Origin: a virus
Strand: one strand, 5' to 3'
Virus record (IMG/VR): IMGVR_UViG_3300037337_000170
Coordinates: 1 to 64,000 of that record
DNA: 64,000 nt
The notes beneath the pieces were generated by a model. It was given only the letters and a program-made list of their open reading frames with translations. It searched no databases and was not told the origin of the DNA. Numbering within the stretch: position 1 is the stretch's first letter; the number at the start of each line of letters is the position of its first letter. The position numbers were made by a program, and so were the translations under genes. Of this stretch, positions 1,808 through 30,436 are shown piece by piece.

Positions 1808-2142
1808 GCGATAAAACTGATTTAGCCGTTGTTATTGCCGACTACTTTTTCATTACTGTTTATAAGCATGATAATGAGGGAATTACCACATATAATCCTG
1901 CAGTAGGATTAATTGCGAATGACACACCGGATAATGTTTTAGTTGTCACAAATATTATTAACGAGGATATTGATGAGGCGATTAAATCAGCACTTACAAT
2001 TGCCGTACTTTTAGCAGATGGCTTTAGCAATTCGATTACTATTTCTGACGATAGTGATGAAACTTTTACATATGAAAAAACAATTACTGACCTTCTGTAT
2101 CAGGGTAATGTCAGTTTTGAGCATTCAAAACTGCTACACTAA
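1804..2142 (+). CDS. hypothetical protein
   Basis: 112-aa acidic ORF with SD AAGGA. Confidence 0.6.
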   Translation: MSDKTDLAVVIADYFFITVYKHDNEGITTYNPAVGLIANDTPDNVLVVTNIINEDIDEAIKSALTIAVLLADGFSNSITISDDSDETFTYEKTITDLLYQGNVSFEHSKLLH

Positions 2143-2217
2143 ATAATTTTGTTGCTCATATGGGCCTTTCGTGGGTTGAGTAAAGGTAGCGGAACTTGGC
2201 GGTTCGCGGCTGCCATC
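2140..2217 (+). ncRNA. candidate structured RNA/leader, copy A (TAAATA late-promoter core plus two hairpins)
   Basis: TTGCTCA..TGAGTAA and GGTAGC-GAAC..GTTC-GCTGCC stems; homologous with compensatory changes to 29432-29508. Confidence 0.6.
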
Positions 2218-2238
2218 TAGTTGTATTAAGGAATTACT

Positions 2239-27314: not shown

Positions 27315-28157
27315 ATGAAAAAAAACAACGCAAATATCGGAATCGTGGGCTATGGCTTTGTAGGAAAGGCAATTGCACACGGCTTTATTGGCTGTGATCC
27401 GGTGATTGCCGATCCAGCTTTAGGTACCTCATGTAAAGATTTAGTCGTGGCAAACATTAAGTTTGATGCGATCTTTATCGCAGTTCCTACTCCCATGGGT
27501 GAGGATGGTAAAATTGATTCTAGCATTGTCGAAAAGGTGCTAGAAGAACTTAAGGATCTAGATACCTTATTGGTTCTAAAGTCAACAGTCACACCAGACA
27601 TCATCAAGGTATTGGCAGAAAAATACAGCAATTTTGTGTACAACCCAGAGTTTCTAACTGAAGCCAATGCACTAAAAGATTTTGTAGATCCTATCATGCA
27701 TGTAATGGGTGGTAGTTGGGAAAATTGTAAAGATCTAATGGATATCTACGATGACTATTCGGAGTGTAAAAAAGGCTGTCGAATTCTCTATATGACTGCT
27801 GTTGAGGCTTCGTTTGTAAAATATACAATGAATTCATTCCTAGCAGCCAAGGTCCTGTTCTTTAATCAGATCAACGAATTGTGTTCAAAACATTCTGCTG
27901 ATTATAATAGAGTAATTGAAGCAGTAGGAAATGATCCGCGTATTGGTAAGAGTCATACAATGGTTCCCGGGCCCGATGGGCGGCGCGGCGCCGCCGGCCC
28001 CTGTTTTTCTAAGGACAGTTCGGCATTCATTCACTTTTCAAAAAATAAGTTGAGTATCCTAAGAGAAGCTTGGAACTATAATGTAGATATTCGTAACAAT
28101 TATGGCGAGCCGCTGCCCCGTGAAGTAGAACAACATGTCTCATTCAATAAAATTTAA
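27315..28157 (+). CDS. ugd: UDP-glucose/GDP-mannose 6-dehydrogenase family (short form)
   Basis: GYGFVG, AVPTP, KSTV, NPEFL, KY..N.FLA.K, DPRIG, GPCF.KD. Confidence 0.88.
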   Translation: MKKNNANIGIVGYGFVGKAIAHGFIGCDPVIADPALGTSCKDLVVANIKFDAIFIAVPTPMGEDGKIDSSIVEKVLEELKDLDTLLVLKSTVTPDIIKVLAEKYSNFVYNPEFLTEANALKDFVDPIMHVMGGSWENCKDLMDIYDDYSECKKGCRILYMTAVEASFVKYTMNSFLAAKVLFFNQINELCSKHSADYNRVIEAVGNDPRIGKSHTMVPGPDGRRGAAGPCFSKDSSAFIHFSKNKLSILREAWNYNVDIRNNYGEPLPREVEQHVSFNKI

Positions 28158-28178
28158 GATGGTGTGGTAAAAAACAAT

Positions 28179-28197
28179 TGCCCTTCGGGGCATTTTT
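28179..28197 (+). terminator. intrinsic terminator
   Basis: TGCCC-TTCG-GGGCA followed by T-run. Confidence 0.8.
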
Positions 28198-28360
28198 AGT
28201 TGGCTTTTGCTATTAATCTATGTACAAAGAGTTACACCGAGTAGGTCAGTGTTTATTTCCCGCCCCCGGTTTCACGATTATAATAGATTATAAAATCAAG
28301 TTGTTCGGTAAGTAAGTTCATATAGCTAAGTCTGTGGCTACGTCTAGGATTACCACAGAC

Positions 28361-28389
28361 TTTACTTTTATTCTGTAGTGTGTTATAAT
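28361..28389 (+). promoter_or_regulatory. early promoter cassette, antisense to the endonuclease gene
   Basis: TTTACT-N17-TATAAT followed by AGGA and ATG but only a 5-codon ORF. Confidence 0.8.
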
Positions 28390-28413
28390 AATTTTTTAGG
28401 AAAAAATATGCAA

Positions 28414-29451
28414 CTAGAGTTTTAAGTTAGAATACTCTTCTTTTGTTAGAGTATAAAAACCTATGTCTCTATATGTTTTATCCTTAAGTTCTTCAAAGGT
28501 ATAATTTGATAGAAGATATTCTGATCTATTATAAGTTATTTTACATATTTTTCGATCACATTTGACACACCAATATCTAAGTTGCTGTATTATCTTGCCT
28601 GGCTCGAAATTATCTGTGGTATCTGTGATACCAAATGGGGTATGAAACCAGTACTTGAAACTCGGGTTTCTATGACCAATACTTGAGCCAGTCAATTTTT
28701 TAGTTGCTGAAACTTTTGCACCAGTGCCAGCTGGTTTAGGAACCCCTTTAAGGGCTTTAGAGATTTTTAATCTAGAAGCAGGAATCTGTGATACATTTTT
28801 GACACCATATTTTAAAATTATATTTTTCTCAAATTTTAGTTGAATGACTGGTGATTTCATGGCATTGTTAACTCCATACCTTTCTAAATTAGTTTCTTCC
28901 GCTTTTGATTTGAATTCAGGTACCTGAAAAGGATTTTCAAACCCATACCTTTCTAAATTAGTTTCTTCTATTTTTTGTTTAAATTCTGGTACTTGACCCG
29001 GATTTGCAAATCCGTATCTTTTTAAATTGGTTTTCTCAATTTTTTGTTTAGTTGATTGTAATTTCATACCATCTGTAACACCATATTTTTCTAACATTAA
29101 ATCTGAAAAATATTTTGTTCCGAATGCCATATGACCAAAATTGTTGTGTCCATTCAACCAGTCATCTGATCCCGCGCAATCATTCTTCTGAAGAAATAAT
29201 GATTCGTAATCTAGAACATTTATACCACATTCCTCTTTAGTAAGTATCTGAACTACTTCGAATGATTCTAATCCACTGTGTTGTATAAGAGCTTTAACCT
29301 TTGTAGAAGATGTTTGATAGCCATCTTCTGTCATAAAAGTATCTGGATAACAACCAACGGCCCATTTAGCTCCAGCATAAAGTTTTTGAGACTGAATGTG
29401 TCTAATAACATAAAAATATGGAGTGCGCTGATAAATAATTTTGCTGGACAT
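28414..29451 (-). mobile_element. free-standing GIY-YIG-like (Seg-type) homing endonuclease gene
   Basis: YFYVI..KLYAG N-terminus, about 5 repeats of ETNLERYG.ENP.Q.PE.K, NUMOD3-like RLKISKALKG; opposite strand and AT-rich. Confidence 0.75.
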
Positions 29452-29508
29452 AGTAGCCTTTCTGGGTTAGTCTAGAGGTGATAGATGTTAGAGCATCGTG
29501 ATCACCAT
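29432..29508 (+). ncRNA. candidate structured antisense RNA, copy B
   Basis: TAAATA then CTGGAC..GTCTAG and GGTGAT-GATG..CATC-ATCACC stems; covaries with 2140-2217. Confidence 0.6.
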
Positions 29509-29509
29509 T

Positions 29510-29538
29510 TTTACTTTTATAACAAGATGTGTTATAAT
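29510..29538 (+). promoter_or_regulatory. early promoter cassette
   Basis: TTTACT-N17-TATAAT. Confidence 0.8.
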
Positions 29539-29569
29539 TTATTTATGTAAATTTTATTTTGAAAAACTT

Positions 29570-30436
29570 ATGGAACACATTAAGAATGTACTTTGTCTCG
29601 GTGGAGCCGGTTTCATTGGCTCTAATCTCTGTGCTCGTCTAATATCTGAAGGCCATAATGTTTTAAGTGTGGATAATTATTCTACAGGAACTAGATTAAA
29701 TCATGTTCCTGGTGTTGGGTATTGCAATATAAACACAAAGGATATTCATGATCTTGAGTTTAAACCAGACTTGATATTTCACCTAGCGGAATATGCCAGA
29801 GTCGAGCAATCATTCAGTGATATGCGAACTGTATGGGATTCTAATTCAACTGGCACATTTGAAGTCTTAGAATATGCCCTTAAACATAATGCCAAACTCG
29901 TGTATGCTGGATCATCAACTAAGTTTGGTGATATTGGGGCCAATTCTTCTCCATACGCATTTACAAAAGCGAAAAATACTGAATTGGTAAAAAATTACGG
30001 TTCTTGGTATGGTCTAAAATATGCTATTACCTACTTCTATAATGTGGTAGGTAAGAATGAGATTGCAGATGGTAAATATGCCACTGTGATTGCAAAGTTT
30101 GCCAAACTATACTCAGAAGGTAAATCTTTACCAGTTACATTACCAGGAACTCAAAAACGAAACTTCACCCATGTGGACGATATTGTCGATGGGTTGATTC
30201 TAGTTGGGGCCCATGGTTACGGAGATGGATATGGTATCGGTGCACCTGAAGCATATTCTATTATTGAAATCGCGGATATGTTTGGTCTCGATATTGATTA
30301 TCAGCCCGAGGTTCGTGGTAATAGAATGGCTGCAGAACTAATGACTACCCTGACCGAGGAGTTAGGTTGGAGTGCTAAACGTAGCATTAAGGATTATATT
30401 GCTCGACTAGTCGCAAAGGATTTTGATAATGTCTGA
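29570..30436 (+). CDS. NAD-dependent nucleotide-sugar epimerase/dehydratase (extended SDR)
   Basis: GGAGFIG, FHLA, YAGSS, PYAFTK (YxxxK), RNFTHVDD; start at MEHIK. Confidence 0.9.
   Translation: MEHIKNVLCLGGAGFIGSNLCARLISEGHNVLSVDNYSTGTRLNHVPGVGYCNINTKDIHDLEFKPDLIFHLAEYARVEQSFSDMRTVWDSNSTGTFEVLEYALKHNAKLVYAGSSTKFGDIGANSSPYAFTKAKNTELVKNYGSWYGLKYAITYFYNVVGKNEIADGKYATVIAKFAKLYSEGKSLPVTLPGTQKRNFTHVDDIVDGLILVGAHGYGDGYGIGAPEAYSIIEIADMFGLDIDYQPEVRGNRMAAELMTTLTEELGWSAKRSIKDYIARLVAKDFDNV

Follow-up and report, generated by a model that had tools for sequence, protein, structure and literature searches.

The window analysed here is a stretch of 64,000 nucleotides (positions 1 to 64,000 of IMG/VR virus record IMGVR_UViG_3300037337_000170), which forms the first half of a 128.6-kb record of an uncultured virus. 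Two of its parts, 2139-2218 (copy A) and 29431-29510 (copy B), both on the + strand, are copies of one structured element and have covariance-model scores of 95 and 93 bits, respectively; copy A, with 95.2 bits (E 1e-20) under model R1, is itself a seed of that covariance model. Copy B covers the start of an intact - strand open reading frame (ORF) of 345 aa at 28414-29451, coding for a homing-endonuclease-like protein. Copy A is an orphan cassette and lies 21 nt from a zinc-ribbon (FmdB-like) gene.

The ungapped alignment of A with B displays a common TAAATAATTTTG, a GCCTTTC..GGGTT core and two hairpins whose stem sequences diverge with their pairing kept, just as a preliminary description of this DNA had claimed, and a repeat search of the window groups the two copies as family D19 (48 nt, 73% identity, two copies). 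In copy A, a promoter-like CTAAATA (2139-2145) is followed by hairpin 1 (2152-2183), with an outer stem TTGCTCA/TGAGTAA and an inner stem GCCT/GGGT, and then by hairpin 2 (2185-2214), composed of GGTAGC-G-GAAC, the loop TTGGCG and GTTC-GCG-GCTGCC. All 21 pairs of this copy form on the + strand, 17 as Watson-Crick and four as G·U. The corresponding parts of copy B are GATAAATA (29430-29437), hairpin 1 (29444-29475) and hairpin 2 (29477-29506). Hairpin 2 carries a 1-nt bulge on its 5' side and a 3-nt GYG bulge on its 3' side, an architecture common to all aligned copies. A K-turn was considered for the GYG bulge and rejected by eye, since tandem G·A pairs are absent. The minimum free energy of the + strand is -23.5 kcal/mol for A and -24.4 for B, versus -9.7 and -12.3 for the - strand, and the + strand fold of copy B (z score -3.4) was not equalled in stability by any of 200 shuffles.

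The 345-aa protein begins with MSSKIIY and matches PHROG 3339 and 12131, both labelled 'homing endonuclease'. The preliminary description spoke of GIY-YIG/Seg genes; for this protein Pfam yields DUF7487 only (9.8e-26), not GIY-YIG. Among the nuclease families that carry the element, this gene is the sole member in the window's own 128.6-kb record. A remnant of such a gene persists on the - strand of copy A (2139-2159), where GAAAGG is followed by ATG AGC AAC AAA ATT ATT TAG, that is, ATG, five codons and a stop (MSNKII*); the sequence reads as originally reported, including its resemblance to the MSSKIIY start at 29451. On its + strand, hairpin 1 of copy A accordingly contains CAT (2157-2159), complementary to the start codon, and CCTTTC (2165-2170), complementary to the Shine-Dalgarno sequence. 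The stop TAA (2140-2142) of an upstream 112-aa gene also falls inside this copy.

A family of cassettes over nuclease gene starts

A third copy (C), followed by the same early promoter as copy B, was found in a more distant relative (L010), on the start of a different nuclease gene, and the covariance model, with A, B and C as its seeds, detected two more copies, one of them on an HNH-type gene. The family was collected by DNA pattern scans of viral and metagenome contigs, whose matches were then scored by the covariance model. A first strict DNA pattern gave no match. On viral contigs, pattern 1 matched 10 stretches, with 8/8 new loci model-positive, and pattern 2, in which TAAATA was not required, matched 20 stretches, with 10/13 new loci model-positive; copy J is the only copy found solely by the pattern requiring TAAATA. 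The scan of metagenome contigs matched 45 stretches, and 16 loci were confirmed by the model. Prokaryote genomes gave 31 pattern matches, none confirmed by the model, which are chance matches. After identical rows were dropped, the total came to 30 distinct sequences, all from uncultured phage contigs. The element described at first as 'two-copy' is thus a family of at least 30 sequences.

The suggestion that the family was an undescribed one agrees with Rfam 15, which gave no match at the gathering score over the whole window; around A and B, the best scores below gathering were at most 17 bits (thresholds 33-80), that is, at chance level. Megablast against GenBank phages with the surroundings of A (3 kb) and of B (2.5 kb) returned no near-identical match, and tblastn of the endonuclease against phages returned distant endonucleases only (<60% identity, no full-length match). 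A related-locus search with the window endonuclease protein found none, and one with an alignment of two GIY-YIG-like proteins found only the contig of these two proteins and one fragment.

In 24/24 copies examined, an ORF on the opposite strand starts within hairpin 1, which overlaps both its start codon and its ribosome-binding site, so that the antisense overlap with nuclease starts anticipated from copies A and B holds across the family. The start codon is located in the 5' arm of hairpin 1 and the Shine-Dalgarno complement near its top. The partner ORFs have in common an N-terminus of the M-(S/T)-(S/N)-x-x-I-Y type, and in 15 of these 24 copies they reach at least 200 aa. All 14 long partner ORFs tested match PHROG families, and for 12 of them these families are labelled homing or HNH endonuclease; the families concerned are 314, 655/12434 (HNH), 10820 (HNH), 3339/12131 and 15526/10829 (unknown function). 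The preliminary description tied the module to one endonuclease family. It does travel with nuclease starts, but its partners span several PHROG families. For three partner proteins Pfam gave no family at E 0.01, and their GIY-YIG or HNH identity is our own reading of motifs. By the model, no cassette matches the related nuclease genes at L025 ~17606 (start MNNKTIYYIYAYLR..) and L122 ~1275 (start MTPAEILHIL..); a different GC-rich hairpin lies upstream of the start of the L025 gene.

Seven partner ORFs, including that of copy A, are shorter than 60 aa, and several are followed by longer ORFs on the same strand; these short ORFs look like decaying genes. Intact cassettes are present at L043, L042 (two copies), L049, L048:2833 and L046:4338, where the ORFs end after 17-51 codons, often with a longer same-strand ORF behind them. 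At such loci the nuclease genes appear to be decaying faster than their cassette.

Judged from sequence comparison, the element is a portable control cassette of about 80 bp that a group of uncultured T4-like phages carries on the 5' ends of free-standing homing-endonuclease genes, and the same comparison showed it to be mobile among nuclease families and genomic sites. On the strand opposite the nuclease, referred to below as the antisense or element strand, its layout is (N)ATAAATA within nuclease codons 5-8, six bases, hairpin 1, one base, hairpin 2 and an A/U-rich tail.

Fold, strand and facing promoter boxes

In the alignment of A, B and C, 95.2% of the cells are paired and 11/21 pairs have changed on both sides, a result equalled by none of 500 shuffles. 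With 24 distinct copies, the paired fraction is again 95.2%, double changes affect 14/21 pairs, and 102 cells carry such changes versus 31 in shuffles; the covariation measures of these 24 copies were reached by 0-2 of 500 shuffles. When their 3' partners were slid by 1-3 columns, pairing fell to 30-50%. Covariation, proposed earlier from two copies, is thus found in further homologs as compensatory changes above the level of shuffles. These figures bear on a reading in which the cassette is a DNA-level recombination module, or reflects shared 5'-end ancestry, and has no RNA function, its hairpins being fortuitous or serving single-stranded DNA. Such a module would fit the mosaic nature of the cassette, which moves between unrelated nuclease genes and sites, and conserved promoter cassettes have been proposed to mediate shuffling in T4-like phages (PMC4122927). 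However, it would not lead one to expect double changes in 14/21 pairs, 95% pairing or the asymmetry of wobble pairs between the strands, and we consider it highly improbable.

The asymmetry is apparent from the pair counts of the 30 copies. On the element strand, the 21 pairs comprise 518 Watson-Crick, 80 G·U, 5 A·C and 21 other combinations, with 6 gaps. Hairpin 1 accounts for 232, 70, 3 and 19 of these, with all 6 gaps, and hairpin 2 for 286, 10, 2 and 2, with none. The third outer pair of hairpin 1 is G·U in 30/30 copies. Since an A·C pair on the element strand is a G·U pair on the nuclease strand, these counts indicate selection for pairing on the strand antisense to the gene. The antisense strand is also the more stable one in 30/30 copies (mean -21.5 vs -13.6 kcal/mol), and its mean z score against shuffles is -2.3, compared with -1.1 for the sense strand. 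The preliminary description had placed the fold on the + strand from the G-U pairs there and the A-C pairs on the - strand; the far greater stability of the + strand and the 80 G·U versus 5 A·C pairs bear it out. Collectively, these data show that the fold is kept by compensatory change, with selection acting on the strand antisense to the nuclease gene.

The antisense strand carries, always six bases before hairpin 1, an ATAAATA that is exact in 23/30 copies and preceded by G in 11, A in 8 and T in 3. The Ile-Tyr codons lying over this box are ATT-TAT in 24/25 copies; in the remainder of these ORFs, ATT accounts for 155/374 Ile codons (41%) and TAT 216/305 Tyr codons (71%), a comparison that gives no exact probability because the copies are related. 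In copy K, the start codon is shifted and the distance from the antisense box to the hairpin is unchanged. Codon choice and the fixed box position in copy K thus argue that ATAAATA is conserved beyond the conservation of the protein. The TAAATAATTTTG shared by A and B, noted at the outset as their common start, is partly due to the remnant codons, and the codon test adds a constraint on ATAAAT at the nucleotide level. Late promoters of the T4 type extend from -13 to -6; in T4-like phages, their T at -13 shows little conservation, A or T being common there (PMC1524935). The predicted +1 of the antisense box is therefore the base directly before hairpin 1.

On the nuclease strand, a TAAATA-type box is located at most 14 nt beyond hairpin 2 in 25/30 copies, 12 of these boxes being a perfect TATAAATA, six NATAAATA and seven the TAAATA core. 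In most copies, the A/U-rich tail after hairpin 2 is the reverse complement of this TATAAATA. Copies B (CATAAATA) and C (perfect TATAAATA) have their nuclease-strand box 30 nt further out, beyond an early promoter. The box of copy B, a candidate late promoter of the endonuclease gene at 29540-29547 on the - strand, is one of four NATAAATA on that strand of the record. Over the whole 128.6-kb record, there are 38 NATAAATA on the + strand but 4 on the - strand, compared with ~31 and ~26 estimated by chance from base composition; to us, the late-promoter box seems to be avoided on the strand opposite the genes. A long-range helix that would join AUAAAUA to the UAUUUAU tail and so close a three-way junction was entertained on paper and set aside: all its pairs are A-U, it offers no informative variation and it competes with the promoter reading.

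These boxes, together with the position of the start codon within the hairpin 1 stem, could also suggest that the hairpins act in the nuclease messenger RNA (mRNA), on the sense strand, as a translational control of the kind known for I-TevI, segB and Aeh1 mobE. In most copies, hairpin 2 borders on a TATAAATA-type box of the nuclease strand; the pairs of this hairpin are almost all Watson-Crick and can form on both strands; and control of this kind has been established in T-even phages and Aeh1 (PMC2988022, PMC2677866). On the sense strand, however, hairpin 1 is mismatched, as its 70 G·U versus 3 A·C pairs imply, with an invariant A·C in the outer stem, and this strand is the less stable one in every copy, with the weaker mean z score. 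Its Shine-Dalgarno sequence lies in a loop, not in a stem. Furthermore, the late promoter lies upstream of hairpin 2: by the -13 to -6 rule (PMC1524935), a transcript from the nuclease-strand TATAAATA is predicted to start within the outer arm of hairpin 2 and would contain the whole of hairpin 1. Late transcripts would thus keep all of hairpin 1, and the bypass used by I-TevI would be inapplicable. Control through the sense strand therefore seems improbable to us.

The best explanation of the cassette, to which we give slightly better than an even chance, would be a cis-antisense RNA of about 65-75 nt that restrains the nuclease. Late in infection, both facing promoters would fire, and the antisense one would produce a stable RNA of this length, starting one base before hairpin 1. 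This RNA would pair with the leader, the ribosome-binding site and the first codons of the nuclease mRNA, thereby lowering nuclease synthesis. Interference or collision between the polymerases of the two facing promoters may add to the repression. The many G·U pairs would keep the antisense RNA tightly folded and leave the complementary mRNA leader open.

Several observations weigh against a cis-antisense RNA. The antisense boxes are mostly GATAAATA (11) or AATAAATA (8) and only in 3/30 copies TATAAATA; G, their commonest first base, falls outside the description of this position in PMC1524935 as commonly A or T. Hairpin 2, with 10 G·U and 2 A·C pairs, is able to fold on either strand. Since the alignments behind the pair counts were fitted to a model built on the element strand, the counts lean to that strand, though the stems are nearly free of gaps and this limits the bias. 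Among the loci collected, at least two related nuclease genes are without a cassette. Three cassette copies, compared by blastn with GenBank phages, yielded a single match at chance level and no related copy, and no cultured phage was found with the cassette. Hairpin 2 was not recognised in copies B and D by a simple terminator scan, which accepts only stems free of bulges; this hairpin has two. Lastly, in 19/22 copies the next downstream gene is on the element strand, often only 20-60 nt away, and in these copies a read-through RNA or a leader role is possible.

Insertion, relic and neighbouring genes

Two endonuclease-free relatives of the copy B locus, L009 (96.5% identical flanks) and L008, align to window positions 28101-28415 and resume at ~29600 (29564 for L008), with nothing between. 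Since both are without the nuclease gene, the element and the second early promoter, these three constitute one insertion of ~1.18 kb (28416-29599). The inserted early promoter, TTTACT-17-TATAAT of family D10, is located at 29510-29538 on the + strand, directly after hairpin 2 and before an epimerase gene, and shares 88% identity with the promoter that follows copy C in a different phage. The original early promoter of the epimerase gene (28361-28389, + strand) no longer adjoins it and is now directed, in antisense orientation, through the endonuclease gene; in L008 and L009, its equivalent stands directly before the epimerase gene.

Around the two ends of the insertion (28361-28420 and 29570-29600), the insertion point lies within the first epimerase codons, and the old promoter, the Shine-Dalgarno sequence and ATG CAA persist as a 5-codon ORF. 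The epimerase N-terminus beside the insertion (MEHIKNV..) matches that of L008, not that of L009, which would be expected from co-conversion during homing. Between 4685 and 32617, the window also contains a 40-60-bp early-promoter cassette (TTTACTTTTAT..TGTGGTATAATAA; families D1-D10) in more than a dozen copies, which head early genes and resemble the PeSL units of T4-like phages.

At the site of copy A, two relatives whose flanks are ~72-79% identical have a permuted transfer-messenger RNA (tmRNA) gene of the two-piece type between the 112-aa gene and the zinc-ribbon gene (L003:5098-5463 and L004:6300-6607, found by ARAGORN and Rfam; window counterpart 2143-2238). These genes score 110-112 bits with tmRNA_permuted RF04321 and 95-101 bits with beta_tmRNA, and ARAGORN reads the tag AKTKTRVNANATQSDEFFALVA in L003; it finds no tmRNA in the window's whole 128.6-kb record. 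The homology of A with L003 runs through TAAATAA and that of A with B begins there, which gives a 7-base overlap at the left junction. The box of copy A itself is ACTAAATA, not NATAAATA, and its facing nuclease-strand promoter is lost. Its nearest intact relative is a gene of L039, at a different genomic site, which starts with MSNKTIY and has a near-identical hairpin 2. By these comparisons, copy A is the relic of a nuclease gene deleted up to codon 6; the six codons kept and the intact gene of L039 uphold the proposal that the element was left behind after loss of the nuclease.

A further contig, L005, represents the same phage as the window (99.4% over 900 nt). Between L005:5140-5219 and window 2139-2218, 2 of 5 differences fall in the 80-nt relic, and one of them turns C-G into U·G. 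Both stem substitutions in the lineage of A, one in hairpin 2 (A vs L039) and one in hairpin 1 (L005 vs A), are wobble changes that keep pairing on the + strand, a weak hint that constraint may continue. The relic might still act as a structured spacer or leader ahead of the zinc-ribbon gene.

The neighbourhood of the copies raises the question of whether the fold works in the phage's own + strand messages, as a terminator or insulator, a stabilising or processing site, or a late promoter and leader for the next gene, the pairing with nuclease mRNA being a by-product. The last of these roles is the one that the preliminary description proposed for copy A and the zinc-ribbon gene. The nucleases mostly lie backwards in phage operons, and RNA from upstream genes must therefore cross the element. 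The co-oriented downstream genes of 19/22 copies (at 21 nt in the case of A) agree with such a role, as do the substitutions in the lineage of A, which pair on the + strand as wobbles, and the orphaned promoter at 28361, which must send antisense RNA through the nuclease gene into the element. An early promoter is also found after hairpin 2 in B and C and, by a looser pattern and at 5-55 nt, in six other copies, an arrangement that recalls the PeSL units (PMC4122927); it is found neither in A nor in 15 of the other 23 copies examined. On the other hand, hairpin 1 always lies exactly over the nuclease start, regardless of the downstream gene, an ATAAATA at fixed distance would be needless for a terminator, and hairpin 2 escaped the terminator scan, with the limit of that scan given above. 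Moreover, three copies have no co-oriented neighbour at all: in these 3/22 cases both neighbours are on the nuclease strand and the cassette is nevertheless intact, which favours a promoter of its own rather than read-through. A role confined to + strand messages is thus unlikely in our view, although it deserves serious consideration.

A more elaborate form of the cis-antisense reading, which we advance tentatively and hold to be doubtful as a whole, takes the cassette for a self-contained and portable safety catch on selfish nucleases. Two facing late promoters ~75 bp apart would give the nuclease mRNA and a fully complementary antisense RNA of ~70 nt, G·U pairs, the invariant one among them, would let only the antisense RNA fold, and at least five nuclease families would have recruited the device thanks to its modular build. 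Relics like A would persist through reuse by the phage as a late promoter with a structured leader, here for the zinc-ribbon gene.

Known systems and biological significance

The closest paradigm for control at the 5' end of phage nuclease genes comes from T-even phages and Aeh1 (I-TevI, I-TevII, I-TevIII, segB, mobE), where an mRNA hairpin hides the ribosome-binding site in long early transcripts and the RNA made from the late promoter, shorter and translatable, lacks one arm of it (PMC2988022). The two arrangements have in common phage homing-endonuclease genes, the TATAAATA late promoter, a conserved hairpin around the ribosome-binding site and a presumed restraint or delay of the nuclease. 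They differ in that the fold of the cassette is on the opposite strand, with the complement of the ribosome-binding site near the top of hairpin 1, that its late transcript is whole and that a second box faces the first. A late promoter upstream of the gene is present in 25/30 copies, copy A being without one. We found no stable mRNA-strand hairpin that pairs the Shine-Dalgarno sequence, nor is the promoter placed so that the late RNA lacks one arm of a ribosome-binding-site hairpin.

A further precedent was reported by Dassa et al. (2009) for the metagenomic 'fractured gene' loci of GOS, where free-standing GIY-YIG and Vsr-like endonuclease genes have hairpins upstream in 15/16 cases and TATAAATA in 10 (PMC2677866). 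Two conserved motifs pair in the stem of these hairpins, and one locus keeps its hairpin after loss of the endonuclease (PMC2677866), in which it resembles copy A. In the passages of that report devoted to the hairpins, they are read as sense-strand translational elements, and strand asymmetry and an antisense promoter or RNA are not considered (PMC2677866). Compared by their text description only, these hairpins are probably the same element as the cassette.

An antisense RNA opposite a free-standing homing-endonuclease gene is also known from a T4-like phage: in cyanophage S-PM2, the cis-antisense RNA CfrI (~225 nt) lies opposite the homing-endonuclease gene F-CphI and psbA (Millard et al. 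2010, as reviewed in PMC2984593 and PMC12197685). The likeness lies in the antisense RNA itself, which is predicted in the case of the cassette, and in its position. CfrI differs in being about three times longer and linked to psbA, and its function is unknown. Model R1, run over the whole S-PM2 record, gave nothing at the CfrI locus, its best score (18.8 bits, E 0.08) falling inside a long structural gene. Our search of the literature on phage antisense RNA with homing endonucleases or late promoters found only cyanophage papers.

The mode of action that we propose is familiar from IS10 RNA-OUT/RNA-IN, P22 sar/ant and R1 CopA, which are stable stem-loop cis-antisense repressors of translation, about 70 nt long and complementary to the ribosome-binding site and start of their target. 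Their promoters lie inside or beside the 5' end of the target and face the target promoter. Similar sizes are tabulated for sar (68/69 nt) and OOP (77 nt) (PMC12197685). The cassette shares neither sequence nor structure homology with RNA-OUT, sar and CopA; its promoters would be phage late promoters, and the unit is common to several nuclease families. As in these repressors, covariation, wobbles and energies point to a stably folded antisense strand complementary to the ribosome-binding site and start codon. The cassette also has a putative promoter motif (ATAAATA in 23/30, ATT-TAT in 24/25), whose first base is mostly G or A.

The PeSL units, which combine a terminator with an early promoter between early genes of T4-like phages (PMC4122927), resemble the cassettes B and C in that a conserved early promoter directly follows hairpin 2. 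PeSL units account for the stem-loop with its early promoter in B and C. Unlike the cassette, they lack a nuclease start, and neither hairpin 1 nor the facing late boxes are part of them or explained by them; copy A and most other copies, for their part, are without an early promoter. Taken together, cis-antisense control and control cassettes at the 5' ends of nuclease genes are already known; the present family is outside Rfam and has been partly foreshadowed in print.

Homing endonucleases are dangerous to harbour, and restraint of their output is known for few T-even cases, all of them explained by mRNA hairpins. If the proposed mechanism is true, it would add control by antisense RNA to the regulation of homing endonucleases, would account for the hairpins noted since 2009 in front of metagenomic endonuclease genes and would provide a new phage RNA family for Rfam. 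The cassette marks nuclease starts and their relics and may thus aid annotation; copy A, for instance, indicates a former nuclease gene at a site that is occupied in relatives by a tmRNA gene. If, furthermore, the more doubtful safety-catch reading held, dead homing elements would be a source of new phage regulatory RNA.

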